IMG/VR virus record: IMGVR_UViG_3300037991_001277
Coordinates: 1-64,000 of that record
Strand: one strand, 5' to 3'
Length of the DNA stretch: 64,000 nt
Source of the DNA: a virus
Taxonomy: Duplodnaviria; Caudoviricetes
Shown: positions 473 through 33,553 of the stretch, piece by piece
Layout of the letters: each line of letters starts with the position of its first letter
Numbering within the stretch: the first letter of the stretch is position 1
Notes under the pieces: generated by a model
What the model saw: only the letters and a program-made list of their open reading frames with translations
The model's database searches: none
What the model was told of the DNA's origin: nothing
Position numbers and translations under genes: made by a program

Positions 473-946
473 ATGGCTGACGCTTTTGCTACTGCATTCT
501 CCTTCTTGAAGGCTTTGCAGCCCTCGCCTCACCACATGGATGAGGGGTTATCTGAGGAGCAAATGCGCCATTACAATAACATGCAGCGATTTAAGGCACG
601 CTTTGGAACAGGTGAGGCTGAACACCCACTACCTATGCCTGAGTCTATGCCTCTACGCAACTTAAACCCCGGACAGTACCCATTCAGTGGGCCGGGTGGC
701 CCAAGAATGAGCAGTCTACCTGACCCTACCATAGAGCCTGAAAACCAAGCACCTGAGCCTCCTATGCATTTACACCCATACATGATGGATTACATAGAAG
801 AACAGATGGGAGACCAACCTCGACCAATTAAACCAGTCAATGTTAGTGGTAACCCAATGGGTAGACTGAAAGAAGGCGATATACAAAACCTAGCAGAAGA
901 GTTTCATATTCCTATGAAGAAGGCATGGGAGTTTTTGAGAAGGTGA
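473..946 (+). CDS. Hypothetical Pro/Met-rich protein with the AW/AF-x-x-LK tag at both ends
   Basis: 157-aa ORF; N-terminus MADAFATAFSFLKA, C-terminus PMKKAWEFLRR. Confidence 0.7.
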   Translation: MADAFATAFSFLKALQPSPHHMDEGLSEEQMRHYNNMQRFKARFGTGEAEHPLPMPESMPLRNLNPGQYPFSGPGGPRMSSLPDPTIEPENQAPEPPMHLHPYMMDYIEEQMGDQPRPIKPVNVSGNPMGRLKEGDIQNLAEEFHIPMKKAWEFLRR

Positions 947-952
947 AGAGAT

Positions 953-2074
953 GTGTCACCTTTTGAGCAAGCCTACCAAGTCCTAAAAGACGACCAAGAC
1001 GACCCACGATACAGACCTATTTTGATGGGTGATTGGGGAGAAGATGACTACGGTGGGCGAGATAAAGTTGAAGAGCAATATTTACCACAGATTCTAAGAG
1101 ATTGGAGAGGCGGTAGGTCAGGAAAAATAGGTCATGGGGCAAACCGATATGCATTAGTTGGTGACAAGACTGTAGAAAAAATACCTCAAAGTTGGGGTTA
1201 TGCACAAGATAAAACTTCATTGGCTATGATAAATGCACTTGCTTCACTTGGTTATCCTATTCTCCCTGAAAGACCTATTGCTACAAATAACCCTCGCTTT
1301 TTCCCAACAGAACAAGATAAAGTAGACATGAGTTTTAGAGATTATATTGACCCACTTATTTATGCTGATGATGAAGAATCACAAAGAGAATTGAAGGAAC
1401 ATAGACGGGTTTTTATGAATGAATTAAGAGACCTTGACACAGAGGTTGCTGAATCTCCACTAGGATATGCTTTAGATGTGGGTGACATAATAGAAAATGA
1501 AGAAAATGTAGGCTATGATAAAGACGGAAATCTTGTAGCAATTGACCCCTTTGTAGGCAACGCTTACCCACTTCAAAGATTTGGAAAACTATTACATTCA
1601 ATGACTGGGCGAGTAGGCGGAAATGATAATGCAGAGCGATACTTTGGTAGAAAGGCAAGACAGGGTGCTGGTAGGAACTGGCGTAGAAATCCCCATTCAG
1701 GTACAAGTCAAAAAGATAAGTTAAAGTGGATGTATCGAGGCTTCAAAGATGTACCTCCAATGCAACTTGACTCGTTTACTCAATTATATCACGACCAAGA
1801 GCAATTCAAACCGTGGGATGCTGCCGAGCAAAAATTGCTTGACGACCCTTCTGCATTTGGTGAATACGAGCCAAATCCAACTCAAAGAGAACAATTAGAA
1901 AATGTAATTGCTGCTGGCCGTGGTAATTATAGAGCAGCAGGTAATGCTTTACAATGGATGAATACTCCTCCTGAGCAAAAACGCCTGTATGAGTTTGGTG
2001 ATAATGAACACGCAAGGCGTTACAGATATATGTTAGATTTCTTAAAACCTGAACCTGAACCTGATAGTTTTTGA
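953..2074 (+). CDS. Tagged protein with a protein-kinase-like fold (possibly a pseudokinase)
   Basis: GTG start after AGGTGA; tag MSPFEQAYQVLKD; Gly-loop-like KIGHGANRYALVGDKTVEKIP; catalytic-loop/DFG-like GDIIENEENVGYDKDGNLVAIDP. Confidence 0.5.
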   Translation: MSPFEQAYQVLKDDQDDPRYRPILMGDWGEDDYGGRDKVEEQYLPQILRDWRGGRSGKIGHGANRYALVGDKTVEKIPQSWGYAQDKTSLAMINALASLGYPILPERPIATNNPRFFPTEQDKVDMSFRDYIDPLIYADDEESQRELKEHRRVFMNELRDLDTEVAESPLGYALDVGDIIENEENVGYDKDGNLVAIDPFVGNAYPLQRFGKLLHSMTGRVGGNDNAERYFGRKARQGAGRNWRRNPHSGTSQKDKLKWMYRGFKDVPPMQLDSFTQLYHDQEQFKPWDAAEQKLLDDPSAFGEYEPNPTQREQLENVIAAGRGNYRAAGNALQWMNTPPEQKRLYEFGDNEHARRYRYMLDFLKPEPEPDSF

Positions 2075-2123
2075 CTATTGAAAGACCACTAGCCTTTTAT
2101 CAAGCAACATCATCGGATTAAAC

Positions 2124-3029
2124 ATGACCGCATTTGACGATGCCTTTTACATATTGAAAAACGAACACATGTTTGACATGGCATGTGATGCACTGCTCCG
2201 CAAAGGCAAAGCAGAAGAAATGATACAACTACAACAGATGAGGCAGTTTGTTCTTGACAATGAAAACTCACCTGACCCAGCAAAGCGACAAGCGGCTGAG
2301 GACATGTATCAACATCTAACTCGCATTATGAGTGCTCAGTCACGCACTTCACCTATGGTAGCACCTGAAGGGCCAGTTGGCGAAGGTGGTTCTATGGGTG
2401 CTATGGCTGGTAGTGCTCAACCACCTGAGCATCCAATGATGAAGGCTTGGGATAATTTGCGAAAGAATGTGGTCGGTATGCAAGACGGAATACAATACAG
2501 TATGCCTCCATCAGTTGCATCTATGGCTCAACGACCTTTAGTTCCTGAAATGACAACTCAAACATCCCCTGCACCGGGTATATTTGGTCGTTTCAAGCAA
2601 CCAGTAACCACTCAAGTCCCAACTGGTAATATGGTAATGGGTGGCCCACAACCAATGAATGTTCAAGAAAATCCACAAAGCCCTATGGCTGGATTTGGAG
2701 CAGGTCACCCTAATGTTTCAACTCCCGGAGGAATAGAGTCAATGGGAGCAACACCGGGTAGTGCAGTAGAGCGTATGCCTCACCCAAGTCCTTTCAATAT
2801 TCCGGGCCTCCCTCCTAAAATGAGCCTTGCTGGTCAAGGTTACACTGTGGATGATGCTGGCGAATATGTAAGACCGGAAAACCCCTATCAAAGTAAAGAA
2901 GTTAGAGAGCGTTTTGAAGATAAATTAGCCCAACCATTAGGTAGGACTATTGCTGGTATTAGAGATGCGAATACACCGAATCAACAACAAGCGGGCGACC
3001 AATTTAACCGACAGACCCGACAGTTTTGA
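2124..3029 (+). CDS. Hypothetical tagged P/M/Q/G-rich protein
   Basis: 301-aa ORF; MTAFDDAFYILKN at the start, internal HPMMKAWDNLRK; TTTAT box about 25 nt upstream. Confidence 0.7.
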   Translation: MTAFDDAFYILKNEHMFDMACDALLRKGKAEEMIQLQQMRQFVLDNENSPDPAKRQAAEDMYQHLTRIMSAQSRTSPMVAPEGPVGEGGSMGAMAGSAQPPEHPMMKAWDNLRKNVVGMQDGIQYSMPPSVASMAQRPLVPEMTTQTSPAPGIFGRFKQPVTTQVPTGNMVMGGPQPMNVQENPQSPMAGFGAGHPNVSTPGGIESMGATPGSAVERMPHPSPFNIPGLPPKMSLAGQGYTVDDAGEYVRPENPYQSKEVRERFEDKLAQPLGRTIAGIRDANTPNQQQAGDQFNRQTRQF

Positions 3030-3081
3030 TGTCGCTTCATAAGCGATATGCTTTTGTTTAAGCACGCTTTGGCATTAGATA

Positions 3082-5073
3082 ATGCCGAGTGAAAACTACG
3101 ACTTCATCTCAGGGGATTCTCCTGATGAAATCGAGAAGTATTTTCAACTTTTGACAAAAATACCACAGGCATTCAAAGGTATCAAAGCAGGTGTAAAAAA
3201 TCTTGCTGGTAAAGTCGGTGTCAAAGGCGGAGGCTCGGTAACAGAAGCAGCAGGTGCTGCAAAAGAGGCAGCAGGTGCTGCTGAAGGTATGGCTAGTGCT
3301 GCTGAAGCAGTGGAGTCTGCTGCACCTAAGCCGAGTTTACCCAAAGCAAGTGATGGAACAGACAGCGTACCTTTACCTGAATCACCTGCTGCTGAACCAG
3401 CGGCTGAAATGCCTGAACCTGAAGAACCAAGTGGGGCTGGTGGTAACAAGACTGATTACAAAAAAATCGGTATGCAGTTAGCCGGACAGATGCAAGCACA
3501 AAATGCTCAGAGAAAACAAGCGCAAGAGCAGCGTGCTATGGAAATGGCTAGGCGTGGTGCATCGGTACAAACTGGTGAGCCAATGAACCTTGCTTGGCGT
3601 TTGCTCAAAAATATTGATGAAGTTCAATTGTGTCCAACTTGTCAAGGTGTTGGTTTTGGATGTAGGTATTGTAAAGGAACAGGGCTTGCTGATAATGAAC
3701 GATTTCATCCCGAAGATACAACTAATGAATATCCGGGTTATGATGAAGATTGGCCTTATCCAACAGATAAAAAAATAGGGCAAACTGTGCCGGATGCGCA
3801 AAAGACAGATGATGGAAAACCTATCACTTTTTTCCATAATACTGAAGATTGGCTTGCTTCAAGACCCGAACCCATCAAAATGCGAACTAATTCTCAAGAC
3901 CAACCTTCATTTATGTATATGCCTTTTGCGGGTGCAAGTAAAGAAATGAAAAACCCTGCGGCTAAGATTTTTCGCAGAAGCGAACCCATGAACCTTGTTT
4001 GGCGGTTGCTCAAAGAAGAAGATGATGAAGTTCCCGACCCTCGTAAGTTCAAAATGCCTCAAGAAGATTATGTCGAGGCACTAAGAGAAAGAGCGAAGAG
4101 AATCAAAGGGCGACAAGCAGACCCCAACATGGCTGAAAATACAGAAAATGTACCAATGGGTCTGAAAGAAAAAGTGCCATTTACTCAGCCACCGGGCGGT
4201 GGGCCTATTCAATTACCGACTAAATTAACGCCTCCTAATGCTAGTCAAGGAATACAAAGAAGAGTTCATCCATTTACAAGAGAGGGTACATTTGAAGGAT
4301 TACCACTAGATACACCTGACGCTGACCCTAAAAAATACTTCACTCGCAGTGAAGCGATGGATATTGCATATCAATTGTTAAAGTTTGAAGAACTAACAGA
4401 TATGCACGCACCTGCTCCAAGAAACTTCAATGAGTATTTTGGTATCAAAGATTCATGGGTGAGTTTACCAAAAGAGGGGATGGATGCACGACCTCAATTA
4501 TATGATGAAGTAGCCAACGCTATGAACATCGCTTACAAACCAGTGGGTGGTCACGATAAATACAGTGATGGTAATGATTTGAAAAATGAAAGCAAGCACG
4601 CTCGGTATGATATGATTGACAATGACCAAGACCCATATGTAGACGCAGCAAGAGTATTTTCTCAACAAGAGCAAGGGTTCAAAGCATCTATTACCGCACA
4701 TGACGGACAACCAGCAGCAAAGCGTGCTGCTGTAGACCATATGATGGAGCATATGCAAATACCGGGTCATTACATAGAAGTTAGTGGAGCATGGCCTAGA
4801 ATCTTTGACAAACAAGGTATGCAACCTATTACAGACTATGACCATATTAGAGAATTAGTAAACAGACCTTTGCGTGAAACTGAAACAGCACCGGGTACTT
4901 ACACTCGCAAAATAGGAGAGAATGAGCGAGAAAAACAAATATTTGGCTCACCAATGAGAGATGGTGCTACTTGGGCTGATGACTTTATGCAACAAGCAAC
5001 AGAAGCAAGTAGAAACAATTCGGCTCTAGTTTTGAATGATTATAATTTTCCAAAATCAGTAGGAGTGATGTAA
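3082..5073 (+). CDS. Modular polyprotein-like protein with three EPM..LLK tags, including a DnaJ-type CxxCxGxG zinc-finger module
   Basis: 663-aa ORF; tags TGEPMNLAWRLLK (3571), SEPMNLVWRLLK (3979), SEAMDIAYQLLK (4348); CPTCQGVGFGCRYCKGTG just after the first tag. Confidence 0.75.
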   Translation: MPSENYDFISGDSPDEIEKYFQLLTKIPQAFKGIKAGVKNLAGKVGVKGGGSVTEAAGAAKEAAGAAEGMASAAEAVESAAPKPSLPKASDGTDSVPLPESPAAEPAAEMPEPEEPSGAGGNKTDYKKIGMQLAGQMQAQNAQRKQAQEQRAMEMARRGASVQTGEPMNLAWRLLKNIDEVQLCPTCQGVGFGCRYCKGTGLADNERFHPEDTTNEYPGYDEDWPYPTDKKIGQTVPDAQKTDDGKPITFFHNTEDWLASRPEPIKMRTNSQDQPSFMYMPFAGASKEMKNPAAKIFRRSEPMNLVWRLLKEEDDEVPDPRKFKMPQEDYVEALRERAKRIKGRQADPNMAENTENVPMGLKEKVPFTQPPGGGPIQLPTKLTPPNASQGIQRRVHPFTREGTFEGLPLDTPDADPKKYFTRSEAMDIAYQLLKFEELTDMHAPAPRNFNEYFGIKDSWVSLPKEGMDARPQLYDEVANAMNIAYKPVGGHDKYSDGNDLKNESKHARYDMIDNDQDPYVDAARVFSQQEQGFKASITAHDGQPAAKRAAVDHMMEHMQIPGHYIEVSGAWPRIFDKQGMQPITDYDHIRELVNRPLRETETAPGTYTRKIGENEREKQIFGSPMRDGATWADDFMQQATEASRNNSALVLNDYNFPKSVGVM

Positions 5074-5074
5074 A

Positions 5075-5239
5075 ATGAAACCGTTTGAAATAGCATGGGA
5101 TTCGCTTGAAAAGAAATTATGCCCTGAAGGTAAAGCCGCTGCAAAACGCAAGTTCAAGGTTTATCCATCAGCATATGCTAATGGGTGGGCTGTGCAATAC
5201 TGCCGTGGTAAGTTCAGGAAAAAGGGGAAAAAGAAATGA
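5075..5239 (+). CDS. Small basic tagged protein, 54 aa, absent from the ORF track
   Basis: Manual translation MKPFEIAWDSLEKKLCPEGKAAAKRKFKVYPSAYANGWAVQYCRGKFRKKGKKK; AGGAGTGA upstream; stop overlaps the next ATG (ATGA). Confidence 0.8.
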   Translation: MKPFEIAWDSLEKKLCPEGKAAAKRKFKVYPSAYANGWAVQYCRGKFRKKGKKK

Positions 5240-5439
5240 TACCTCTTGAAGCAGCATGGGCTGTAATGAAAGCCAAAAAAGATGCACCAAATTACCGTAA
5301 GGCAACTGGGTCAAAAAAATGCGGTAACTGTAAAGCATGGGATTCGTCAAAAACTGACGACCCAATGACTGGTTACTGTGAGTGGTACGACTTTACTTGT
5401 AGAGCCGACCATGTATGTGATGCTTGGGCTGGTGAGTAA
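5236..5439 (+). CDS. Small tagged Cys-rich protein with HiPIP-like (4Fe-4S) or Zn-binding cysteine spacing
   Basis: Tag MIPLEAAWAVMKA, then PNYR...CGNC..W...GYC..Y......VCDAW. Confidence 0.55.
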   Translation: MIPLEAAWAVMKAKKDAPNYRKATGSKKCGNCKAWDSSKTDDPMTGYCEWYDFTCRADHVCDAWAGE

Positions 5440-5440
5440 A

Positions 5441-7612
5441 ATGCCTGAAGAGCCTCGCCCTTTTGCTCTAATACCTATGGAGGATTTATCAGAAATGTTG
5501 AATCCTAATTCAGACAAAATGATGAGGCTACTAGGTAAACACATCCCTAGAGAAATGCTTACTGCTGACCGAGCGCAAGAAGTCTTTAATGCGCTTAAAC
5601 GAGAAGCAGAAATAAGAGAGCGTGACCAAGTATATTTCCCTCTACCTGATGAGCAGCCGCTTAACCAGCAATCAATGTTTAGAACTGAAACAAAGTTTAG
5701 TCCTAAGTTCCAAGATATAATGACAGGCGAACCAATGAACCTTGCTTGGCGGTTGCTCAAAGAGTATGATATTGAAGATGTTAAGAGATTGCTTGTAGGT
5801 GAAGGTGCTCATAGAGATTGGATAGAAAGGAATGCAAAAAAACTTCAACCCGGCTCTAATAGAGATTTACCAAGACCTCATGCTCTTTTATCCCATAAAG
5901 AACTGAGAGAGTTAGAGGCGCAAATGCAATATGACCCTAATTCTTATTATGAAGGTGAAGAAAAAGAATATACAGACCCGCAAACGGGCGAAGTTAAAAC
6001 CTATAGGGAAAGTTTTTTCAAACCTCATTTCCAAGAGGTTCGTGATGAAATAGATTTAAGAGAATTAGAGAATACACCGTGGGAACTCCCTGCACCACAG
6101 ACATTCAATTTTTTAGGTGGTGAGAGCAAACCAAGTTCTACTACAAGTTTCACAACTGATATGAGTTTCGGTGAGCCTTCTACTCTTGAGAGCATAGAAG
6201 GTAAGAAAAATAGAGGTTTTCAGGATATTTACACAGGCGAACCAATGGATATTGCATTCCAACTACTCAAAGAAGATTCTCTTGACCCTGAAGAGAGGAC
6301 ACCGATTAAAGACGAGAAGGTCAATTATAAGTTTCCATCAGCAGGGCCATATTGGACTTTGAATGATAGGCAAAAGAGAATAGCAGATGCTGTAATAGAT
6401 TTACCAAGTGAATATTTATCTGAAGAAGGGTGGGATGGATATGACTTTGACCATTTATTTGCAGAGGGTCACGAAACTGTTCCCGACCAAGAATATGACC
6501 GGCTAGAAGCCGCACTAAGATACTTCAAGACATACATCAAAAACCACATGGCTCACCCCGATACTGATAAATCACCTAAGTTTTTAGAATCATGGGATGA
6601 CCCTCGCCATCCGTGGGCTATGGCTAGGCATATGGCGTTTTACAGAGATACTGAGCCATATGACCATTTTTCTGAAGATTTCAAAGAGGCTAACAAAAGC
6701 GAACCAATGGATTTAGCATTTGATGCAATTAAGAAAAATCTAAACCGATGGTTCAAGGAAAAGTGGGTTGATGTATCTCGTAAAGACAAGGATGGTAAGC
6801 ACCCACCATGCGGTAGAAGCAAGGCAAAAAAATCTAGTAAGGGCTATCCAAAATGCAGACCTAGTGTAAAGGTATCAAGTAAAACTCCAAAAACTTCAGG
6901 CTCAATGACTGAGGGGCAAAAGGCTGCTGCAACAAAACGCAAGCGCAGTAAAAAACAAGGTGTAGGTGGCAAGCCTACTATCGTAAAAGAAGATTTTCTG
7001 AGTGACCCTATGAGTGACTTTAACATGATGGTGGCTTTACAAGACGAAGCGTACAAATTGGCTGAATTGAATACGCCTTATTCTCGTGAAAAATATCCTG
7101 AGTATGATGACTATGTAGAGGAGATAGAATACCAAGGAGAAAACATTCTTATGCAAATGATGAACAAACCTGAGTATGCACATTTGAGAGAAAGATACAA
7201 GCAAAGTATACCAGTAATGACCGAAACAGATGAGTTTCCCCAAGACTTCATTAACGCAAACAAAGGTAGTCCGATAGAAATTGCATTTAGATTATTAAAA
7301 GCACCACGCATACCTCGTAAAAAAGGACAACCCGCTGGTTCAAAGAAACATTCTGATTTGTATACTGACGAAAATCCAAAAGGCACTATACATGGTTTAG
7401 GTTTCAAGAACCCAGCAAAGGCTCGCCAATCAGTATCTAAAATTAAAAACAGTAGCCGTAGTCATGCTCACAAAACACAGGCGGCTATTGCTATGGAACA
7501 AAGAGCACGAGAGATGGGTAAGAAACAAGAGGCCGGTGTTTATCGTAATTTTATTGAGCAACAAAAAAAGAAAACTCAAAATATGAAAAAGATGGTAGGT
7601 GTAAAACAATGA
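5441..7612 (+). CDS. Modular polyprotein-like protein with four tags, mixing acidic and very basic phage-type modules
   Basis: Track ORF 5378..7612; the ATG at 5441 follows GGTGAG and is the more likely start; tags at 5723, 6233, 6698 and 7265; basic modules NLNRWFKEKWVDV..CGR..YPKCRP and HSDLYTDENPKGTIHGLGF..MEQRA. Confidence 0.75.
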   Translation: MPEEPRPFALIPMEDLSEMLNPNSDKMMRLLGKHIPREMLTADRAQEVFNALKREAEIRERDQVYFPLPDEQPLNQQSMFRTETKFSPKFQDIMTGEPMNLAWRLLKEYDIEDVKRLLVGEGAHRDWIERNAKKLQPGSNRDLPRPHALLSHKELRELEAQMQYDPNSYYEGEEKEYTDPQTGEVKTYRESFFKPHFQEVRDEIDLRELENTPWELPAPQTFNFLGGESKPSSTTSFTTDMSFGEPSTLESIEGKKNRGFQDIYTGEPMDIAFQLLKEDSLDPEERTPIKDEKVNYKFPSAGPYWTLNDRQKRIADAVIDLPSEYLSEEGWDGYDFDHLFAEGHETVPDQEYDRLEAALRYFKTYIKNHMAHPDTDKSPKFLESWDDPRHPWAMARHMAFYRDTEPYDHFSEDFKEANKSEPMDLAFDAIKKNLNRWFKEKWVDVSRKDKDGKHPPCGRSKAKKSSKGYPKCRPSVKVSSKTPKTSGSMTEGQKAAATKRKRSKKQGVGGKPTIVKEDFLSDPMSDFNMMVALQDEAYKLAELNTPYSREKYPEYDDYVEEIEYQGENILMQMMNKPEYAHLRERYKQSIPVMTETDEFPQDFINANKGSPIEIAFRLLKAPRIPRKKGQPAGSKKHSDLYTDENPKGTIHGLGFKNPAKARQSVSKIKNSSRSHAHKTQAAIAMEQRAREMGKKQEAGVYRNFIEQQKKKTQNMKKMVGVKQ

Positions 7613-7923
7613 GTGCATTTGACGAAGCATGGGATTTGCTTGAAAAAGGCAAAAAGAAATCTAAGCCGTTTCATGGATATAACCCGAAACGGCATCACAA
7701 AAAAGGTGGATTAAACGCTAAAGGCAGAGCCAAGTTCAAGCGTGAAACTGGCGCAAACCTAAAGCCACCAGTTACAACTAAGCCATCCAAACTCAAGCCG
7801 GGTAGTAAAAGGGCAAAGAGGCGTAAATCATTTTGCGCTCGTATGGGTGGTATGAAAGGGCCGACCAGTAAGAAAGGTAAACTTACACCAAAAGGTGCAG
7901 CGTTAAAGAGATGGAATTGTTAG
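7609..7923 (+). CDS. Tagged, highly basic protein resembling the DUF6321-type phage family
   Basis: MSAFDEAWDLLEK, then GGLNAKGRA..NLKPPV..RRKSFCARM..LKRWNC; family recalled from motif, not searched. Confidence 0.65.
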   Translation: MSAFDEAWDLLEKGKKKSKPFHGYNPKRHHKKGGLNAKGRAKFKRETGANLKPPVTTKPSKLKPGSKRAKRRKSFCARMGGMKGPTSKKGKLTPKGAALKRWNC

Positions 7924-7924
7924 T

Positions 7925-8356: not shown

Positions 8357-8460
8357 GTTGTCCGACTTGTCTAATGTCTGATATAGACAAATAATATATT
8401 CTTGTAAAATGTATAAACAATACAACGGACAACCCGGACAACAGCCCCAGCAACCTTTAT
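8357..8460 (+). promoter_or_regulatory. AT-rich promoter region with nested inverted repeats upstream of the GTPase operon
   Basis: GTTGTCCG (8357-8364) pairs with CGGACAAC (8426-8433 and 8435-8442); TTGTCTA (8367-8373) pairs with TAGACAA (8384-8390); AT-rich core with GTATAAA and TTTAT. Confidence 0.5.
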
Positions 8461-9076: not shown

Positions 9077-9085
9077 GGAATATGA

Positions 9086-9343
9086 ATGGGTCGAATCTTT
9101 CGTACACCTTCTGATGATGCAACTGAGAGTACCCTTCGTGCTATTCACATAGCCAACACTGTGGATAATGCCTACGAAAGAACATGGGGTTGGATAAAAA
9201 CTGTTCTTGCATCTCTTATCACAGCCTTAGTTGTTAGTGGTATTGAGTTTCATAATACCAGTTTCAGTGTTTATGAAAATACTGTAGAGTGGACTGTTGA
9301 TAAGTTAGACCAACTTGTTAATTGGCTAAAATGGTGGGATTGA
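9086..9343 (+). CDS. Small single-TM membrane protein
   Basis: 85-aa ORF; WGWIKTVLASLITALVVSGI; amphipathic C-terminus LVNWLKWWD; GAGG RBS. Confidence 0.7.
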   Translation: MGRIFRTPSDDATESTLRAIHIANTVDNAYERTWGWIKTVLASLITALVVSGIEFHNTSFSVYENTVEWTVDKLDQLVNWLKWWD

Positions 9344-9349
9344 TGTTCT

Positions 9350-10072
9350 ATGGTAGACGCAGGTGGCACAGCCTTAGTAGGCGCAGCGATGTGGGGTCAG
9401 AATCTCTATAATTCTTACAAACCAAGAAAAGTTGGTGTCTATGGAGCACCTATGGTTGGTAAAACTACGCTTGACCGTTACCTTACAACTCCGGGTGAAA
9501 TGGAGGAAATACCCGAAGGTGAAAGAACTACTCACTCTCGTATACTAAAAATTGGTAAGTATAAAATGCCAAAGCCAACGAGAAAAAGAGTATCTTGGCA
9601 AGGTGAAAGGCGAGTTGTATATTCTGCTGACATAGGGGGGCAAGAGCGTTTTTGGAATCTTTGGATTGAAGATATGGTTACTCGTGGTGTAGAAGCAATT
9701 GTCTACATTTTTGACGATAGAGCATTCAAAGGAGGAGATGAAGGCTTACAACAAATTGCAGGTTTTCGCTATCTTGTAGATTGTCTCATCAATAGAAACT
9801 ATCGCTATCGCTCATTTTGGTCGAGACTAAAGGGTAAAAAATACCATCCAAAAGTCATCATGTTAGTAGCGAATAAGGCTGACCGATTTTTTGACGAGAC
9901 TGCTTCAAAACTTTGGCACGATGGAAGAATAGGCGAGCACAAGATATTTGACCCATTTAGAGATGATTTAATTCGCTTACAAAAAGCAGGTATTCCTACT
10001 AGAAGGTCGTTTATGGCAACAAGAATAGGATGGAATGTAGAAAAGACAATGGTGAGTCTTTTGACCTCGTGA
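9350..10072 (+). CDS. Small Ras-superfamily (Arf/Rab-like) GTPase
   Basis: G1 GAPMVGKTT, G2 candidate ERTT, G3 DIGGQERF, G4 VANKAD, G5-like MATRIGWNV; hydrophobic N-terminal extension. Confidence 0.88.
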   Translation: MVDAGGTALVGAAMWGQNLYNSYKPRKVGVYGAPMVGKTTLDRYLTTPGEMEEIPEGERTTHSRILKIGKYKMPKPTRKRVSWQGERRVVYSADIGGQERFWNLWIEDMVTRGVEAIVYIFDDRAFKGGDEGLQQIAGFRYLVDCLINRNYRYRSFWSRLKGKKYHPKVIMLVANKADRFFDETASKLWHDGRIGEHKIFDPFRDDLIRLQKAGIPTRRSFMATRIGWNVEKTMVSLLTS

Positions 10073-10127
10073 CCCAAAAAATGACCCCATAGGTAGCCTT
10101 TTGAATAACAACTCTTTCGGTGAGGAT

Positions 10128-10325
10128 ATGTCAGGTAAGAACTCTTCAACAACATTGGTATCTACTGGCGGTGGTAGCCGTAGTCTTAGAACCACAGTTC
10201 CTATGTGGATAGTTGAGCATTTTGGGTTAAATGCTGGTGACGATGTTCATTGGAAGTTTGTTGTTCAAGAGGGGCAGATTGTTGTAGTAATGACTCCTAC
10301 GCCTGAACAGGTTGTGATAGGATGA
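10128..10325 (+). CDS. AbrB/MazE/SpoVT-like DNA-binding protein
   Basis: SLRTTVPMWIVEHFGLNAGDDVHW fits the swapped-hairpin pattern; ATG 10128 follows GGTGAGG (the track starts at TTG 10101). Confidence 0.75.
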   Translation: MSGKNSSTTLVSTGGGSRSLRTTVPMWIVEHFGLNAGDDVHWKFVVQEGQIVVVMTPTPEQVVIG

Positions 10326-11260
10326 TTAACTTTAGTAGACCTCAACAACAACAACATCTTAACGAAGCACAATTAGCAACTTTGGCTATGCAAGGTAACG
10401 ACCAACTTACTCAGGCTGCGTTACAAGAAATGCTAATGGCTCAACAAGGTATGCAAGAAGTTGCTGCTGCTCAGAATATAGAAGTCCCAAAAGTTAATTT
10501 TTATCCAAGTCGCCACCCTGACCCAAGAAAGGCTAGGCGTAAGGATATTAAGCAAGCCTACAAATTACTTCAACCAGCAAAGCGTTCAGTATTCAATCCT
10601 ATGAGGTGGTTGTTTGGTCGCAAATACAGATATGCAAAAGATACTGGTACTTGTGTTGTAGATGGTTGTAACTGTGCCAATTTAATTCAACATGATAATC
10701 TCTACATGAAAATCAGCGATGAGGAAACTGGTCGCTCTTTATGGGAAATGTATTGGCAAAACCCAGTTACAGGCCAGCCTGAAGCATTTATTGCTCAGGA
10801 TAAAGTAACCAGTGGTAGAAAATTAAAGGGAACATATTGCCCTGAGCATATGCATCTTTACCATCTTTTGGTAAAGTGGGAGGCCGAAGAGGATAAGCAA
10901 AATGAGATGAATCCGAGTCGCCTTCGTGATAAAGTAAAGAGAGGGGTATCAATTGTTACAGTTCCTATTTCATCTGTGAAGAAAAACGACCCGACACCTG
11001 CTATGCTACAAAAGTATGAGCCTTTCTTTGCTGAACTAGAAAGAGACGCAGGTAAAACAAAAGGTATCAATATACTACATTATGCAAACCCAGCAACTGG
11101 TCAAAACGATATAACGATGGTTGTATTCGACTTGCGTATATTCCAAATGGAACTACAACAAATGAATATGCCGACACAAGCATTTCAAGAGTTACTTAAC
11201 ACTGAAAATGCCAAAGTACAACAGAACATTGATGTTGGACTAACTACTGGGGATGCGTGA
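10322..11260 (+). CDS. Hypothetical protein with a Q-rich N-terminus and probable Zn site (CVVDGC...YCPEH)
   Basis: 312-aa ORF coupled by an ATGA overlap. Confidence 0.7.
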   Translation: MINFSRPQQQQHLNEAQLATLAMQGNDQLTQAALQEMLMAQQGMQEVAAAQNIEVPKVNFYPSRHPDPRKARRKDIKQAYKLLQPAKRSVFNPMRWLFGRKYRYAKDTGTCVVDGCNCANLIQHDNLYMKISDEETGRSLWEMYWQNPVTGQPEAFIAQDKVTSGRKLKGTYCPEHMHLYHLLVKWEAEEDKQNEMNPSRLRDKVKRGVSIVTVPISSVKKNDPTPAMLQKYEPFFAELERDAGKTKGINILHYANPATGQNDITMVVFDLRIFQMELQQMNMPTQAFQELLNTENAKVQQNIDVGLTTGDA

Positions 11261-11927
11261 TACGATGTTCAACTTCGGCAACCAACCACAGCAAAACAGC
11301 GGATTTAATCTTTCACAGACTGGAGGAGGGAACGGAGGATTAGGCTTGAATATGGGTACTCAAAGCAACTTTACTCTTGGTGCTCAGCCTCAGCAACAAA
11401 ATCAAGGTTTCATGGCAGGTATGATGGGTGGCATGGGAATGAGCCAACAGCAACAACATATGATGCAAAATGGTCAGATAGCCCCTCCTTCTGAAATGGA
11501 GTTAATGTCTGCACTTTTACAATCACAAAATCCTATTCACCGCTTCATAGCAACTGGTGGGCTTGCGTCTCTAGTTGATTTGATTGCTACAGCAACAAGT
11601 CTTAGTTTGATAAACATTCTAAAAAATGGCACATTTGTTATGGATGAAGATGAAGGAGGTATGAAACTAGACCCTGCTACTTTACCATCTGAGTTACAAA
11701 CTCTAAGCGCAGAAAATGTCAAAATGCTTCTTACTAATTTAGTATCACAAAGTCAGCAAACTGTTCAGCAAGCAGAAATGCAAAGACAGCAAATTATGGC
11801 TATGGCTCAACAATCAATGATGGGTAGTGCTCTTGGTGCTGCTTTACAAGATGAGGGTATGATGAATAAAGTCGGTGGCGGAATTGGTAGTGTCGCTCGT
11901 GGACTTATAGGACTACCAAGACAGTGA
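11253..11927 (+). CDS. Hypothetical Q/G/M-rich low-complexity protein with a hydrophobic central segment
   Basis: 224-aa ORF; F-N/G-Q-rich N-terminus; GGLASLVDLIATATSLSLINIL. Confidence 0.7.
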   Translation: MRDTMFNFGNQPQQNSGFNLSQTGGGNGGLGLNMGTQSNFTLGAQPQQQNQGFMAGMMGGMGMSQQQQHMMQNGQIAPPSEMELMSALLQSQNPIHRFIATGGLASLVDLIATATSLSLINILKNGTFVMDEDEGGMKLDPATLPSELQTLSAENVKMLLTNLVSQSQQTVQQAEMQRQQIMAMAQQSMMGSALGAALQDEGMMNKVGGGIGSVARGLIGLPRQ

Positions 11928-11936
11928 GGGAATAAT

Positions 11937-12185
11937 ATGCAACCGGGTAGTATGTCTGATTACAGCATGAGAATAAGTCAAGCGAGTAGCACTATATTTG
12001 CTCCAAGTAGAAATATCATTGTAGAAATGATAATGGTACAGTTTATTTCAATCATTATTGCTTGTGCATCTATCTTAGTTTTCAAGGGAGATTCAATGAG
12101 CAGCGGAGATGTTAGTGTATTTGTAGTAGGTATCTTTGGAGGGTTAGTTTTCCTGACTACTCTTTACTCCCGAATTACTCGGTAA
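11937..12185 (+). CDS. Small two-TM membrane protein (holin-like topology)
   Basis: IIVEMIMVQFISIIIACASILVF and VSVFVVGIFGGLVFLTTLY; basic C-terminus. Confidence 0.7.
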   Translation: MQPGSMSDYSMRISQASSTIFAPSRNIIVEMIMVQFISIIIACASILVFKGDSMSSGDVSVFVVGIFGGLVFLTTLYSRITR

Positions 12186-12428
12186 CCACTTGTCTATAGG
12201 ACAGCCAACTGAGGGCGCAAGTGCTTTAATTTTCATTACACAATTGCACAGTCGGCAAGTACCCATTCTTTTTTGCATATAAGGGCATTGATAACACTCA
12301 TCAAGCCTCTCCATGTATTCTTCTTTTGAAACTCTACGACCTTTCAGTGCGTCTTTTGAAGCATTAAGTAAATCTTTACCACGCCTTTTGAGAGGCTGTT
12401 TTGGGACTCTCTCGTAAGGTGGCAGCAT
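12144..12428 (-). CDS. Cys-rich zinc-binding protein (R-x-x-x-C-x-x-C...C-x-x-C-x-C...CP-x-x-KW; DUF6171-like)
   Basis: ERLDECYQCP..TCRLCNCVMKIKA..GCPIDKW; ATG at 12428 preceded by GGAGGT on the minus strand; the only convincing minus-strand gene. Confidence 0.7.
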   Translation of the reverse strand: MLPPYERVPKQPLKRRGKDLLNASKDALKGRRVSKEEYMERLDECYQCPYMQKRMGTCRLCNCVMKIKALAPSVGCPIDKWLPSNSGVKSSQEN

Positions 12429-12488
12429 GATACCTCCGAAAAGGTTCAGGAGAAAAAGCATTATGGGTAATGCTGCTTTAAGCGTGTC

Positions 12489-13172
12489 ATGGCGGAGGGT
12501 GGTGGTATCACAAAAAGGTCTTGCCCTTTGTGCCAACATCCTAGTCGTGCCGACTTAGAAAAGGGTCTGCTTGATGGTGAAATATCACCTAAACAACTTG
12601 ACAAAGATATGGGCTGGCGACTCAACACAACTGACCGTCATTTCCGTAATCACATGGGTCAATATCACATGGCTTCTAACCCTCAATGCAAAGTATGTGC
12701 TCATCCTGAAAGGGCTGATTTTGAGCGTAGATTCTTTGAGGATGGCTCTGAATCTGAGGCTATTGCTGAGGAACTTGGAATTGCTGAGTCATCAGTTTAT
12801 CATCATATGAAGCATCACTTTCAACCTTTAGTTCAAAGAAGTGCAGCCGCTGAAATTACATTAGTGGTGGGAGAAGAAATCAACGCACTCAGGTCAAATG
12901 TTGAATTACTTAATGTTAAACTAACTGAGTTACTAAATGAAGGTAGCGTGCATGAAGATGGTTTTGTTAGAGACGCAGTTTCTCTACACAAAGAGGTCAG
13001 AGAATCAATAAAGGACTTATTGAAGATGAATGAACAATGGAGTCCTACAACTGAAAACAATCAAATTAACAACACAATTAACATTCTCAAACTTGAACTT
13101 GGAAAAGAAAGTCCTGAATCTTGGGCTAGAGTTCGTAAACAACTATTAGAGCACGCAGGTGATATGAATTGA
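12489..13172 (+). CDS. Probable terminase small subunit or DNA-binding protein with two tandem CxxCxH...HxxxH Zn-HTH repeats and a coiled coil
   Basis: CPLCQHPSRADLE...RHFRNHM and CKVCAHPERADFE...HHMKHHF; C-terminal coiled coil; upstream of TerL. Confidence 0.55.
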   Translation: MAEGGGITKRSCPLCQHPSRADLEKGLLDGEISPKQLDKDMGWRLNTTDRHFRNHMGQYHMASNPQCKVCAHPERADFERRFFEDGSESEAIAEELGIAESSVYHHMKHHFQPLVQRSAAAEITLVVGEEINALRSNVELLNVKLTELLNEGSVHEDGFVRDAVSLHKEVRESIKDLLKMNEQWSPTTENNQINNTINILKLELGKESPESWARVRKQLLEHAGDMN

Positions 13173-13570
13173 TGCCAGTTCCAGTGCCTGATTTGTTGCA
13201 GATGACCCATCCGGGTTATTCAATGGTGGATAGTAAATTGGTTATTTCTGAAAATCATGTACCAATGTATCTTGATTTTTGTCGCTGCGTTATAGAAAGA
13301 TTTGAGCACTATGGTGAACTAAATATCACACCACCTGATTTATTCAAGTTGTTAGCAAAGTCTTTTCAGACCGTATTTGAAGATGACGACCCTACTACAT
13401 TTTTCCCCGCTTACAATCTCATACCTCGTTTGCTTGAAGAGTTTGAATATACGATGGAAAACATGACTTCGGCATTTCAAGATAGTCCGAGAATAATGTC
13501 GTTCTATAGAAAAATAAGCGAAAAGTTGCGACAGTGTTTTGAATACCATATCATGGGGGATAATACATGA
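13169..13570 (+). CDS. Hypothetical protein
   Basis: 133-aa ORF overlapping both neighbours; GGTGA upstream. Confidence 0.65.
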   Translation: MMPVPVPDLLQMTHPGYSMVDSKLVISENHVPMYLDFCRCVIERFEHYGELNITPPDLFKLLAKSFQTVFEDDDPTTFFPAYNLIPRLLEEFEYTMENMTSAFQDSPRIMSFYRKISEKLRQCFEYHIMGDNT

Positions 13571-15669
13571 CGGAGGGTATGATGGGTAGAACCTCTGATA
13601 CGAGGATATACAATCCTCGCTCAGAATCCTCTGAAATGTTTAGGGCTAATCACGAAGATGAAAGGCCACCAAGCGGTATTGAAGATGCTAAAAGCAAGGA
13701 AAGACGCAAAGACAAAAAACAAGCCAAGCGAGAGCGAGAGGAAAAAGAGGATAAGAAAATCCGTCATATCAAAGTTCGCAGACACCATCTTGGTCTTGGT
13801 GATAGCAAACCTAGTGAAGATATGGATGAAGAAGAAGAGCAATACAAACCTCGTGGCTCTACAGATAATCCAGCAAATCAAACAATGCCATCAGGTGCTG
13901 GTGGATTCCTAAGTAGTCTTGCTATGGGTGCAAAAGGGCCGGGTGCTGCTGGGGGTCAAACGATTCAAATGTCTGAGCCTATGGATATGGCTTGGCGGTT
14001 ATTGAAATACGATGAATATTATGACGATGACGATGACGATGACTTTTACCATGAAAGTTTTTACTATGACGATGACGGAAATCCTCGTGACCCTCGTAAA
14101 AATCCCGAACATGAATACCATGAAGAAAATATGTATGATGAAGCGGGTGAAGAACTAAAAGATGAAATTGAACAACTTAGAGCATCTCCCGGCTTCCTTA
14201 ACAAACCTGAACCAGCGGTTACTGATAAAGAGAAAGAAGAAGAGGAACTTAAACAAAGTATTGCAGATTTCCTTTCTAGTCAAAAACTAGCAGGTGAGCC
14301 TATGGATATGGCTTGGCAACTACTCAAAATGTCTGAGGCTGAAGCCTTACATTACCACCATCCTGATATTGAAGCACAGCGTCATATTGATAAAAAGAGG
14401 AATGTTTCAGGACACCTCACAGGTCACATGAAGCAAGGTCTATCACGCAAAATAAGACAAGATGCGATAGATAGAGCACAAAGAAATGTATTAGCGGGTA
14501 TTCCTGAATATCTACGATTTGCACATGGCACTCATCCTGAAATGATGAGACGCAGGGCTATGATACCTGATGATAAAACACCTTTGCTACCTACTACTGC
14601 TGATGAGAGAAATAAAATTGCTGATTTGGAAGAGGTTGCTAGGAAAATTAAACTAAACCCTCAAACTGTTTATCATCAACAAATGTACTCTACTCAGATG
14701 CTACCACCCGGCCCATTCACTGAACCCGAACCTGAACCTGAACCTGATATTCAAGATTCGCCTATACCCGGAATGGCGTTTGTTAATGGTCAATTAGTGC
14801 CTGACCCTCGTGTGAAAAAAAGTAGTCCTATGGACTTTGCTTGGGATATGATTCAAAAAAAAGAATCTAAGCGTAGCGTAGCCCGTAGACGCAAGAAAGA
14901 GGGTTATGCTAAGTGGCGACCATCTACTGGTCAGTTTGAAAAGCCAAAAGGCGGTGGTGACCAACGAAACATTACATCAAGACGCTCTAAAAACATCAGT
15001 CGTAATCTACCGATGGGGCGTAAAACTGGATTAAATCGTTCACATTTTTCTGTTGAGTTTTCACACCGAGGTCTTGCTAGTAAACAACCTCCGTCTAAAG
15101 ACCCTCAAAAATACAGACCTTATCTTGCTTCACAAGATGCTCGTAAACTCTTGGGTGGAGTGAGAACAGTATACACACCACACATGAGACATAGCCAACG
15201 CTCCTTTATTGCTGGCCCTACAGGTGGTGGTCGCTTGACCAACACGCTTCAATACCCTCGTATTCCAAGACCAAGACTACATGCTGTTCGTGCTCCAAGT
15301 ATCGTACCACCTAAGATGAAAGTACCTCGCTTAGCACGACCTAAGATGCCGAGCATGATAACAATGAGTGAGGACACTCCTCAGCACAGTGATATTCTCA
15401 AAGCCAATGCATATCAAGCAGCATTGATGCGAATTGCTCTGAAAGAGATTCGTGAATTAATGCGTGAAAAGAAAGACAAGGATAGTAAAAAGAAAGGTAA
15501 GGGTGAACCCGACACCGCTGGTGCTGCAAGCACTTTACCCAACTATCCAGCCAATAATCCCAAGCAAACAAATCGAAATCAGGGTGCTACAGAAGATGCA
15601 AATAATGAGCCACGAGATTATGGGCTTGACCCCGGTGCTCTTGTAGGTAGAGGGAGTGGGCGAGTTTGA
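13567..15669 (+). CDS. Modular protein with three EPMDMAW-type tags, an acidic module and an Arg/Lys/Pro-rich module
   Basis: SEPMDMAWRLLK (13972), GEPMDMAWQLLK (14293), SSPMDFAWDMIQK (14821); poly-Asp tract; basic C-terminal third; DILKAN near the end. Confidence 0.75.
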   Translation: MTEGMMGRTSDTRIYNPRSESSEMFRANHEDERPPSGIEDAKSKERRKDKKQAKREREEKEDKKIRHIKVRRHHLGLGDSKPSEDMDEEEEQYKPRGSTDNPANQTMPSGAGGFLSSLAMGAKGPGAAGGQTIQMSEPMDMAWRLLKYDEYYDDDDDDDFYHESFYYDDDGNPRDPRKNPEHEYHEENMYDEAGEELKDEIEQLRASPGFLNKPEPAVTDKEKEEEELKQSIADFLSSQKLAGEPMDMAWQLLKMSEAEALHYHHPDIEAQRHIDKKRNVSGHLTGHMKQGLSRKIRQDAIDRAQRNVLAGIPEYLRFAHGTHPEMMRRRAMIPDDKTPLLPTTADERNKIADLEEVARKIKLNPQTVYHQQMYSTQMLPPGPFTEPEPEPEPDIQDSPIPGMAFVNGQLVPDPRVKKSSPMDFAWDMIQKKESKRSVARRRKKEGYAKWRPSTGQFEKPKGGGDQRNITSRRSKNISRNLPMGRKTGLNRSHFSVEFSHRGLASKQPPSKDPQKYRPYLASQDARKLLGGVRTVYTPHMRHSQRSFIAGPTGGGRLTNTLQYPRIPRPRLHAVRAPSIVPPKMKVPRLARPKMPSMITMSEDTPQHSDILKANAYQAALMRIALKEIRELMREKKDKDSKKKGKGEPDTAGAASTLPNYPANNPKQTNRNQGATEDANNEPRDYGLDPGALVGRGSGRV

Positions 15670-33522: not shown

Positions 33523-33553
33523 TAACAAAAAATAGGAGATGAAAAATATGGCA
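33523..33553 (+). promoter_or_regulatory. Leader/RBS repeated before the MCP and the next gene
   Basis: TAACAAAAAATAGGAGATGAAAAATATGGCA here; TAACAAAAAAATATAGGAGATGAAAAAATATGGCA at 34730-34764. Confidence 0.65.

Follow-up and report, generated by a model that had tools for sequence, protein, structure and literature searches.

We describe a short peptide motif, here called the tag, that recurs throughout one gene cluster of a magrovirus-like archaeal tailed virus. The virus is represented by a single contig of 105,554 bp (IMG/VR record IMGVR_UViG_3300037991_001277), and the first 64 kb of this contig (64,000 nucleotides) constitute the window that was analysed. The tag has 12 residues, [M/G/S]-x-[P/A]-[M/F]-[D/E]-x-A-[W/F/Y]-x-Φ-L-K (Φ, hydrophobic residue), and is present in 18 copies in nine open reading frames (ORFs), where it heads, separates or ends protein modules that are unrelated to one another. 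It is real, non-random and confined to one gene cluster, which lies upstream of the genes for the terminase, the portal, the protease and the major capsid protein (MCP), on the same strand. What might be the role of such a tag? The account that we favour, although we would stop just short of calling it probable, is that the tag serves as a portable docking peptide by which interchangeable effector modules are carried into the procapsid, and that its last residues form a cleavage site, Φ-L-K↓, for the S78 prohead protease of the virus.

Results

Distribution of the tag in the genome

When all six frames of the whole 105,554-bp genome were searched with a regular expression, all 18 matches were located on the + strand, within ORFs, between nt 476 and 14859; the other ~90 kb of the genome and the whole - strand gave none. 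Shuffling of the residues within the six-frame segments yielded a mean of 1.6 matches and a maximum of 6 (300 shuffles), and shuffling of the nine tagged ORFs (3163 aa) a mean of 0.03 and a maximum of 2 (2000 shuffles), compared with the 18 observed. A 12-column hidden Markov model (HMM) built from the 18 copies scored these copies at 8.4-17.7 bits, and no other site in the genome exceeded 5.0 bits. In a scan for recurring 11-mers that was blind to the motif, the tag ranked first in the genome. The profile over the whole genome thus restricts the tag to one gene cluster, with none among the replication genes.

Six copies open ORFs, eleven are internal and one ends the ORF at 473-946 (Table 1). 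The original prediction, made from the letters of the window, had listed 17 strong positions, and all of these hold the motif to within a few bases; the six ORFs that it described as headed by the tag (473, 953, 2124, 5075, 5236 and 7609) are indeed so headed, and its count of about 20 modules agrees with the 20 segments that result when the nine ORFs are cut at the tags. Its three weaker sites differ among themselves. The first, at 911 (905 in our coordinates), is a true copy of 15.1 bits, and at the second, 17730, the HMM does not recover a tag. The third, at 25643, has no HMM match but has a conserved tag-like N-terminus with one extra residue. We also noted that the ORFs at 473-946 and 953-2074 are in the same frame, with one TGA and two codons between them (window 944-955), so that a tag stands on both sides of the stop.

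Conservation of the tag at the peptide level

The same residues are encoded by different codons in the 18 copies (Glu by GAG or GAA; Pro by CCA, CCC, CCT or CCG; Leu by TTG, CTA, CTC or TTA; Lys by AAA or AAG), and nearly identical DNA is found in three copies only (3574, 3979 and 5726). This synonymous variation indicates that selection acts on the peptide, and that the tag is a protein-level signal. Across 160 related loci, the profile gave 476 matches of at least 8 bits on the strand of the genes, against 16 on the opposite one. In the 282 unique copies from relatives, Ala and the second Leu are each retained 269 times and Lys 272 times, with Arg in its place 3 times; position 3 is occupied by Pro in 204 copies and by Ala in 77, and no conservation is seen over the twelve residues flanking the tag on either side.

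The relatives contain 339 copies in total, 113 of which head an ORF and 226 of which are internal; 14 are followed by fewer than 12 residues. N-terminal copies read M-[TNSK]-[PA]-F-[DE] and internal copies [GS]-E-P-M-D, position 4 being F in 101 of the 113 and M in 167 of the 226. In four near-complete relatives (103-116 kb) the tags number 11-13 per genome and are grouped within ~15 kb, and in one relative some tagged ORFs lie between the terminase and the portal.

To obtain a wider view, a 30-column profile of the tag was compared with 1.84 billion representative proteins. It matched 411 proteins at E <= 0.001, 135 at E <= 1e-10 and 8 at E <= 1e-30, with up to 7 tag stretches per protein; since a single copy cannot reach significance in this comparison, the proteins found are multi-tag proteins and 411 is a lower bound. 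In the best 150 of the 411, all from metagenomes, the HMM marks 318 tags with the consensus [GS]EPMD[IL]A[WFMY][RQ]LLK. Lys is present in 317 of the 318, position 2 is E in 285, and position 5 is D in 264. Neighbouring tags are separated by a median of 166 residues (94-258 for the 10th-90th percentile). N-terminal copies number 17, and 22 are C-terminal, with 10 or fewer residues after them.

At the DNA level we used a strict pattern of the Trp form only, which is narrow and undercounts the tag. It matched 36 stretches in IMG/VR and, among 185,579 prokaryotic species genomes, a single site, located in a 16-kb contig that had been binned with a metagenome-assembled genome of the alphaproteobacterial Parvibaculum sp. 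This contig is collinear with nt 9.3-18 kb of the window, with 74-91% protein identity, and is almost certainly a mis-binned magrovirus fragment. Because it was the only prokaryotic match, we abandoned mimicry of a host motif as an origin of the tag.

The structure of the tag was approached through an AlphaFold2 model of ORF 5378 made without an alignment. The model is poor (mean pLDDT 40.9); its helices at residues 119-129, 290-297, 442-464 and 632-641 coincide with the four tags, and start after the Pro. On this low-confidence model, the tag is predicted to be a short amphipathic helix with a Pro cap, a hydrophobic face (M/F-A-W-L-L) and a final Lys.

Modules joined by the tag

The ORFs of the window have up to 5 modules each. 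The description of these modules as unrelated, which formed part of the original prediction, is borne out by the relatives, in which clustering of 391 segments yields 130 clusters, 76 with a single member and few with any family. Of the module families, 21 have 4 or more members, and 15 of these are found in different upstream contexts, namely behind an N-terminal tag, behind an internal tag or as an untagged first module; DUF6321, for instance, has an N-terminal tag before it in 4 cases and an internal one in another 4. Thus, genes fuse and split at the tags, and this, together with the eleven internal copies, agrees with the earlier claim that the tag also works inside ORFs at module boundaries. 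It is not solely a leader, because it is also found at C-termini, and because some families always stand first in a polyprotein with a tag on their C-side only (the N-domain of ORF 13567, in 30 of 31 cases). The 57 unique orthologues of ORF 13567 have this N-domain, one tag and a basic C-domain in common; in the window copy, an insertion at residues 150-420 adds two further tagged modules. For ORFs 3082 and 5378, the 160 related loci yield 3 and 0 orthologues of full length, respectively. At the other extreme are stand-alone tagged ORFs of 54, 67 and 104 residues. DUF5872 is itself split, one half being encoded in the 54-aa ORF 5075 and the other in residues 452-526 of ORF 5378 (6734-6955), each behind its own tag.

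Most modules have no family, and effector-type domains are few. In the window, Pfam identified the very basic modules noted earlier as DUF5872 and DUF6321 (the latter in ORF 7609), and PHROG families of unknown function were also matched. A poly-Asp run is visible in the sequence, as had been stated. Of the supposed DnaJ zinc finger, two CxxCxGxG repeats are visible, but the Pfam family DnaJ_CXXCXGXG was matched in a relative only. A 'HiPIP-like' module was not confirmed, as ORF 5236 has only a DUF7140 match of 16.3 bits, below the cutoff of 27. The kinase-like character of ORF 953 is a lead: its neighbours in the ESM Atlas carry the Phage_T7_kinase, Kinase-PolyVal and YrbL families at 0.92-0.93, but the ORF has no Pfam match, and only 4 homologues covering at least 150 residues are present in the loci, too few for a good fold.

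Among 129 representative tagged ORFs of relatives, Pfam matches comprised DUF5872 (3), DUF6321 (2), and GNAT, HD_4, DUF3293, SAM lyase and mRNA_cap_C (1 each), and PHROG matches comprised phrog_6437 (15), an HD phosphohydrolase (1) and a ParB-like family (1); phrog_6437 also matches the untagged window ORF 7925. In 74 multi-tag metagenome proteins, Pfam matched DUF5872 (3), SLOG/YAcAr (2), GNAT (2), and a DprA-like domain, DnaJ_CXXCXGXG and a phage zinc-binding domain (1 each).

Counterparts of the modules in bacteriophages

The module that begins two residues downstream of a tag in ORF 5378 (residues 643-726, window 7304-7555) shares 82-87% identity with proteins of the T4-like cyanophages P-TIM68, S-SM2, Bellamy and SynMITS9220M01, and 75% identity with a protein of Pelagibacter phage Mosig. 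The homologue in S-SM2, Bellamy and SynMITS9220M01 is a protein of 600-700 aa encoded directly upstream of the large terminase gene. In the S-SM2 record it is labelled T4-GC119 and lies between the terminase genes g16 and g17; the translated protein has the same small modules in a string, without tags. The P-TIM68 homologue directly follows the MCP gene, and the GenBank record of S-P4 labels its own copy 'T4-like structural protein, T4 GC0119', a label that we take as a hint only. DUF6321 is present in 365 phage records, mostly of cyanophages and pelagiphages; in the homologue search with ORF 7609, the best 120 of 6467 matches are all close relatives.

The identity of the ORF 5378 module to cyanophage proteins is unusually close for a comparison of archaeal with bacterial viruses, and points to either recent exchange or very strong constraint. 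The start of the P-TIM68 protein, MMKSFIDFSENLE, was considered as a possible counterpart of the capsid-targeting sequence (CTS) of T4 and was dropped, since it fits L/I-x-E poorly; moreover, the S-SM2, Bellamy and SynMITS9220M01 homologues begin directly with the module, and the start of S-P4 gp060 differs again. In the portions of the literature available to us, mentions of DUF6321 and DUF5872 are unrelated to phage heads.

Prohead protease, capsid protein and candidate cleavage sites

ORF 32119 matches Peptidase_S78 (PF04586) with 41.2 bits (cutoff 21) over residues 23-177, and PHROG head maturation protease families match too. By profile and by gene position the protein is of the S78 (HK97-type) family, and a protease of the T4 gp21 type, as the analogy in the original prediction would have it, is not what is encoded here. 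Candidate Φ-Φ-K sites were sought in an alignment of 46 protease-scaffold proteins (55-98% identical). First, the N-terminus, which is variable in length, ends in [LIV][LI]K|[GAS] just before the S78 domain, with K17 conserved in at least 90%. Second, ILK170|ED (I168-L169-K170) is invariant at the border between the protease domain and a variable acidic and basic linker. Third, K339 and K430 are invariant in variable linkers, with a hydrophobic residue two or three places before each.

Similar sites are found in other virion proteins. The N-arm of the MCP contains GSELLK37|AD, which is invariant in 46 aligned relatives and aligns with MSK|ADN of the halovirus HVTV-1, and in the orthologues of ORFs 15666 and 17999 the conserved body is preceded by a short variable N-terminus with Φ-Φ-(x)-K at its end (for ORF 25284, see Table 1). 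Seven of the 13 LLK tripeptides outside the tag fall in the head block, which is suggestive, albeit in small numbers. An LLK near the N-terminus of the 1825-aa ORF was discarded as a candidate site, as it is not kept in all relatives. Proteins of the virion block also show a second short N-terminal motif, (M)(G)SILVRK (15666-15710 and 17999-18025), and the protease has xVSVLRS (32119-32170).

The protease-scaffold (window 33457-33486) and ORF 25284 (25569-25598) have in common a C-terminal helix, M-S-W-[ED]-E-[IV]-H-x-[LM]-A, which is kept in relatives and is likely to be a capsid-docking motif of the scaffold proteins. Its likeness to the tag is limited to a loose M-[AS]-W-x-x-[LIV]. A complex of the MCP, the protease-scaffold and a 41-residue piece of ORF 5378 with a consensus tag was predicted with a score of 0.00 and a mark of 0.32; with the fold of the partner uncertain and no controls included, this result speaks neither for nor against binding.

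Regulatory setting of the cluster

The tagged cluster follows a control region with GTTACGC repeats (Table 1); one more repeat is located at nt 105503, across the circular junction of the contig. These repeats are probably regulator binding sites for the rightward genes. A different element, of 19 bases and promoter-like (GTTGATATATAAAGCAACA; GTTGATATATAAAG[CG]AACA), is present in 13 copies on the - strand between contig nt 71076 and 105481, ~20-30 bases upstream of the ATGs of the replication module, and has no copy on the + strand of the genome. Its appearance is that of an archaeal BRE/TATA promoter, marking a single temporal class. As it occurs only among the - strand genes, the tagged genes belong to a different regulatory class, although this does not prove that they are late. 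The 'LIYKGT/LIYKAT' pseudo-N-termini that recur in - strand ORFs are a translation of this element.

Discussion

A proposed docking peptide that may load and release effectors

How might the tag act on the capsid? We propose that synthesis of the tagged proteins would coincide with that of the virion proteins, and that the tag would bind a component of the assembling procapsid, such as the scaffold, the inner face of the MCP or the protease, whereby each tagged chain would be co-assembled into the head. The S78 prohead protease would then cut after the Φ-L-K of the tag, removing N-terminal tags and turning the polyproteins into pieces of ~100-250 residues. These pieces would stay with the DNA and leave with it at infection. 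We infer all of these steps, namely procapsid docking, cleavage after Lys, packaging and ejection, from the anatomy of the genes. A docking role is suggested because the tag heads stand-alone small ORFs and ends some proteins, neither of which would be explained by a mere cleavage site. Every tagged chain has at least one tag, which may be at any position, and this is how a docking peptide would be expected to behave. Cleavage after Lys is supported indirectly, in that the K is almost never R, and in that Φ-Φ-K is conserved in the junctions of the protease-scaffold, in the N-arm of the MCP and at the N-termini of virion-block proteins. The setting of the tagged genes agrees indirectly with the proposal as well: they are on the strand of the virion genes, lack the promoter of the replication genes and, in one relative, are found between the terminase and the portal; a head-block ORF has a tag-like N-terminus, and a cyanophage protein composed of homologous modules is labelled structural in one record. 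In its most general form, the proposal would give archaeal tailed viruses of the open ocean a signal that any module could acquire: once the 12-residue helix stood at one end of a module, or in the joint between two, the capsid would take the module in, the HK97-type protease would release it, and it would travel to the host with the DNA. Each virus would then have a rapidly shuffled set of ~20 small effectors. We advance this general form as possible, and with some doubt.

Several observations tell against the proposal. The genome of HVTV-1, in spite of its related MCP and protease, gave no match to the tag HMM over its whole length, and in a motif-blind 11-mer scan it yielded only acidic low-complexity repeats; therefore, the tag does not simply follow the capsid lineage. 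The residue after the Lys of the tag is E in 109, D in 40 and A in 31 of 318 copies, whereas at the other candidate sites it is mostly G, A or S, with the exception of ILK170, which is followed by E. The specificity for Lys that we assume for the S78 protease is that of HK97's own protease, which cuts after Lys. The tagged cluster is the first block after the control region, and, judged by this position, could be an early rightward unit and not a late one. Finally, the cyanophage homologues do not have tags, and in the text of Sullivan et al. (2010, PMC3037559) T4-GC119 is only called 'a hypothetical protein' in a mobile cassette.

Alternatively, the tag might dock to a hub other than the procapsid, with the tagged proteins, expressed first from the rightward unit, acting as unpackaged, cytoplasmic factors of host takeover. 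We consider this unlikely, yet it is the alternative that deserves most attention. In short linear docking motifs, as in the tag, the position may be N-terminal, internal or C-terminal, and one copy per chain seems to be enough. Haloviruses of the same capsid type are without the tag, and the cluster adjoins the control region at the start of the rightward genes. SAM lyase and kinase-like functions, moreover, are classically early and non-packaged in T3/T7. The hub could be a host factor, or it could be viral. The virus has its own Cpn60/TCP-1 chaperonin, and the N-terminus of a T4 head protein has reportedly been found to direct proteins to GroEL. A conserved Ras/Roc-like GTPase, ORF 9350, lies amid the tagged genes; it occurs in 122 confirmed viral stretches, with 66-98% identity in the 80 related loci kept, and is flanked by small membrane proteins and an AbrB/MazE-like ORF. 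Such a hub would nevertheless leave unexplained the near-absolute K and the likeness of Φ-Φ-K to sites in the protease, the scaffold and the MCP. It also has to contend with a cluster that lacks the promoter of the replication genes, with cyanophage homologues of the modules that lie in structural or packaging neighbourhoods, and with the absence of a host motif that the tag might copy, the single match in 185,579 species genomes being mis-binned.

If the strict Lys is taken as the essential feature, the tag could be a mere processing site of polyproteins, recognized by the viral S78 protease or by a host protease, with no part in targeting; the freed modules would then function at their place of synthesis. 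Its position between modules at a domain-size spacing (median 166 aa), and the similar Φ-Φ-K sites in the protease's own polypeptide, would suit this explanation. We regard it as improbable, because in 113 of 339 copies the tag heads a stand-alone ORF in which there is nothing to separate, and other copies end proteins with 0-10 residues after them; in addition, the ten conserved positions before the Lys, including the Pro cap and the Trp, exceed what is seen at the candidate sites of the protease and the MCP.

The extreme shuffling of the modules, as in ORFs 3082 and 5378 (3 and 0 full-length orthologues in 160 loci) and in the 130 clusters with their 76 singletons, raises the question of whether the tag is a junction element that favours recombination, or an inert helical spacer with no specific partner. 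The nearly identical DNA of copies 3574, 3979 and 5726 could be read in this way, but most copies differ at synonymous sites, and DNA identity is thus not kept. An inert spacer would not keep A, W/F/Y, L-L and K across 411 protein clusters, and would be needless at the N-terminus of single-module ORFs. We therefore attach very little credence to this explanation. It is equally hard to believe that the tag is a membrane-targeting amphipathic helix of the MinD/FtsA kind, taking the modules to the host membrane as the site of action of the small membrane proteins of the cluster (ORFs 8459, 9086 and 11937, predicted by eye), since the tag, for all its helix and hydrophobic face in the low-confidence model, is only ~10 residues long and, with conserved acidic residues at positions 2 and 5, has a net charge near zero or negative, unlike known membrane-targeting helices.

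Comparison with known systems

Procapsid docking followed by cleavage, as we propose it, has its nearest precedent in T4. In that phage, a CTS of ~10 aa loads proteins, even GFP, into the scaffolding core, and the gp21 prohead protease digests the core after assembly. The internal protein IPI enters the cell along with the injected DNA and acts there as an inhibitor of a restriction enzyme of the host (PMC9958956). The CTS of IPII and IPIII resembles the tag in being a short peptide common to otherwise unrelated proteins of a tailed virus, and six ORFs start with the tag in our genome. In contrast, the CTS is N-terminal only, whereas 226 of the 339 copies of the tag are internal and some are C-terminal. 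The T4 sequence bears no likeness to the tag consensus [GS]EPMD[IL]AW[RQ]LLK. The proteases also differ: T4 gp21 cuts after Glu, and in the present virus an S78 HK97-type protease is paired with a putative Lys site. The ~18 copies per genome, the polyprotein strings and the archaeal host further set our system apart.

A second likeness is to the polyvalent proteins. According to Iyer et al. (2017, PMC5512222), these have 2-15 conflict-related domains per polypeptide, are encoded beside packaging genes, and were proposed to be packaged, delivered with the DNA and sometimes processed. The tagged proteins are alike in having up to 5 modules per window ORF, encoded upstream of the terminase on the same strand. 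Comparable domain content is seen in a few tagged proteins of relatives (GNAT, HD, SAM lyase, SLOG, DprA-like, ParB-like and the kinase-like lead), most modules having no family. Polyvalent proteins often contain MuF, an embedded peptidase, a zeta toxin or ART, whereas Pfam scans of the tagged proteins of the window, the 129 ORFs and the 74 proteins revealed no MuF, portal fusion or embedded peptidase. In our system single-module ORFs are tagged as well. One conserved 12-residue tag stands between the modules here, and no inter-domain tag is mentioned for polyvalent proteins in the portion of that paper available to us (PMC5512222).

Other systems are more distant. In SPN3US, the prohead protease trims many internal head proteins, removing their N-terminal propeptides by cutting at a short consensus motif, which can be present several times in one propeptide (PMC10052503). 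The SPN3US/phiKZ site consists of 3 residues ending in Glu within propeptides of 20-254 aa, and there is no conserved 12-residue helix and no polyprotein of unrelated modules. The cargo-loading peptide of encapsulins, which is found on varied cargo, docks to the inner face of a shell with the HK97 fold. This peptide is usually C-terminal, present once per cargo, uncleaved and of another consensus, and the shell is free of DNA; binding of our tag to the MCP is hypothetical. The C-terminal tail of the HK97 protease, also of the S78 family, is said to carry the protease and fused passengers into the prohead (attributed to Duda, Oh and Hendrix, 2013), and the likelier counterpart of that tail in our virus would be the C-terminal MSWEE[IV]H helix and not the tag. 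Altogether, the nearest functional parallel of the system is the T4 CTS in combination with polyvalent proteins, and it is a member of neither. A word search of the text available from three papers on magroviruses (PMC5434244, PMC10160649 and PMC11706807) returned no mention of the motif or of polyproteins.

Most magrovirus genes still lack annotation, and the tag, by ordering nine ORFs into ~20 units, provides a first way into a large portion of viral dark matter. If our proposal is true, it predicts which proteins enter the host at infection, and it explains the free exchange of modules between genomes, including modules 82-87% identical to cyanophage proteins; some of the effectors would then be drawn from a gene pool of cyanophage and pelagiphage proteins. 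It would extend the CTS principle of T4 to HK97-type proteases and to archaeal viruses, with one signal that both loads and processes the cargo, and would constitute the first such effector-delivery system in archaeal viruses. A short tag for packaging foreign proteins into HK97-fold shells might also be obtained. The proposal can be tested with recombinant capsid and protease, so that a culture of the host is not needed.

Genome of the virus and other features

The ends of the contig overlap by 8 bases, which indicates a circular assembly with an arbitrary start. From nt 473 to ~67 kb all genes are on the + strand, except for a small ORF at 12144-12539, and beyond ~67 kb the genes are on the - strand. 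In addition to the genes in Table 1, the + strand encodes tail tube-like and tape-measure-like proteins, and the - strand part encodes a family B DNA polymerase (PolB), a Cpn60/TCP-1 chaperonin and an SNF2 helicase. The MCP shares 35% identity with those of the Haloarcula siphoviruses HVTV-1, HCTV-1 and HCTV-5.

As described by Philosof et al. (PMC5434244), magroviruses, which are viruses of Marine Group II archaea reported to be dominant in the archaeal virome of the surface ocean, have genomes of ~100 kb, an MCP ~33% identical to those of haloviruses, and a ligase within the structural module; their MCP, portal and protease are distantly related to those of haloarchaeal siphoviruses, and their replication module is based on PolB (PMC5434244). 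Our genome agrees with this description, and we assign it to a magrovirus-like archaeal tailed virus. The earlier guess of an archaeal virus was therefore right, and it is upheld by the MCP (35% to HVTV-1), the terminase, the portal, the S78 protease, PolB, the group II chaperonin and the ligase domain in the head block. More than 120 related contigs are present in IMG/VR.

Table 1. Copies of the tag and other features of the genome (positions in the window, unless contig positions are indicated)
Feature	Position	Strand	Remarks
Control region of the tagged cluster	241..460	+	Six GTTACGC repeats, four as TAGTTACGC
N-terminal tag MADAFATAFSFLK, ORF 473-946	473..511	+	Weakest copy, 8.4 bits
C-terminal tag HIPMKKAWEFLRR, ORF 473-946	905..943	+	Last 13 residues, stop directly after; 15.1 bits
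N-terminal tag MSPFEQAYQVLK, ORF 953-2074	953..988	+	GTG start; kinase-like lead
N-terminal tag MTAFDDAFYILK, ORF 2124-3029	2124..2159	+	
Internal tag EHPMMKAWDNLRK, ORF 2124-3029	2427..2465	+	
Internal tag GEPMNLAWRLLK, ORF 3082-5073	3574..3609	+	Followed by zinc-finger module, CxxCxGxG x2
Internal tag SEPMNLVWRLLK, ORF 3082-5073	3979..4014	+	
Internal tag SEAMDIAYQLLK, ORF 3082-5073	4348..4383	+	
N-terminal tag MKPFEIAWDSLEK, ORF 5075-5239	5075..5113	+	N-terminal half of DUF5872; phrog_27331
N-terminal tag MIPLEAAWAVMK, ORF 5236-5439	5236..5271	+	Cys-rich module; weak DUF7140 match
Internal tag GEPMNLAWRLLK, ORF 5378-7612	5726..5761	+	
Internal tag GEPMDIAFQLLK, ORF 5378-7612	6236..6271	+	
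Internal tag SEPMDLAFDAIK, ORF 5378-7612	6698..6733	+	Followed by C-terminal half of DUF5872
Internal tag GSPIEIAFRLLK, ORF 5378-7612	7265..7300	+	Followed by cyanophage-like module (residues 643-726)
N-terminal tag MSAFDEAWDLLEK, ORF 7609-7923	7609..7647	+	DUF6321 module
Ras/Roc-like small GTPase, ORF 9350	9350-10072		Inside the tagged cluster; G1 GAPMVGKTT, G3 DIGGQE, G4 NKAD by eye; weak Pfam Roc match
Internal tag SEPMDMAWRLLK, ORF 13567-15669	13972..14007	+	Followed by poly-Asp module; kept in orthologues
Internal tag GEPMDMAWQLLK, ORF 13567-15669	14293..14328	+	In insertion specific to this genome and close kin
Internal tag SSPMDFAWDMIQK, ORF 13567-15669	14821..14859	+	Followed by conserved very basic Pro-rich domain
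ORFs 15666-17999 and 17999-19201	15666..19201	+	Between tagged cluster and terminase; both start (M)(G)SILVRK
Large terminase	19201-20685	+	
HMGL-like (pyruvate carboxyltransferase family) gene	20896-21861		Between terminase and portal
Portal	23115-24881	+	
Small coiled-coil scaffold-like protein, ORF 25284	25284..25631	+	Variable linker with conserved [LIV][LIV]K|[SGA] site; MSWEEIHEMA at C-terminus
Diverged tag-like N-terminus SPMSREAFDLMNK, head-block ORF 25574/25628-26593	25643..25681	+	M[KR]PIPSPxSxEA[FY]xLLxKA in relatives; not recovered by the HMM
1825-aa ORF	26606-32083		Between portal and protease; weak ATP-dependent DNA ligase domain, residues 1397-1485
Prohead protease (Peptidase_S78) fused to scaffold-like C-terminal region	32119..33510	+	Directly upstream of MCP gene; MSWEEVH helix motif at C-terminus
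Major capsid protein, HK97 fold family	33539..34723	+	
Group II chaperonin Cpn60/TCP-1	67323-68819 (contig)	-	Full-length, E 1e-120; start of the leftward module

The 1825-aa ORF occupies the position of the 1335-aa 'zeta toxin' protein of HVTV-1, and is a candidate for a packaged polyvalent protein. An ORF of 6068 aa (window 44476-62682), which follows the gene for the tape-measure-like protein and an ORF of 413 aa, presumably encodes a giant tail or adhesin protein. The tape-measure-like protein itself (window 41915-43228) has a Trp-rich internal repeat, LAWDNLI / PLWNLVG / ILWDVLV, which was the second-ranked motif of the 11-mer scan.

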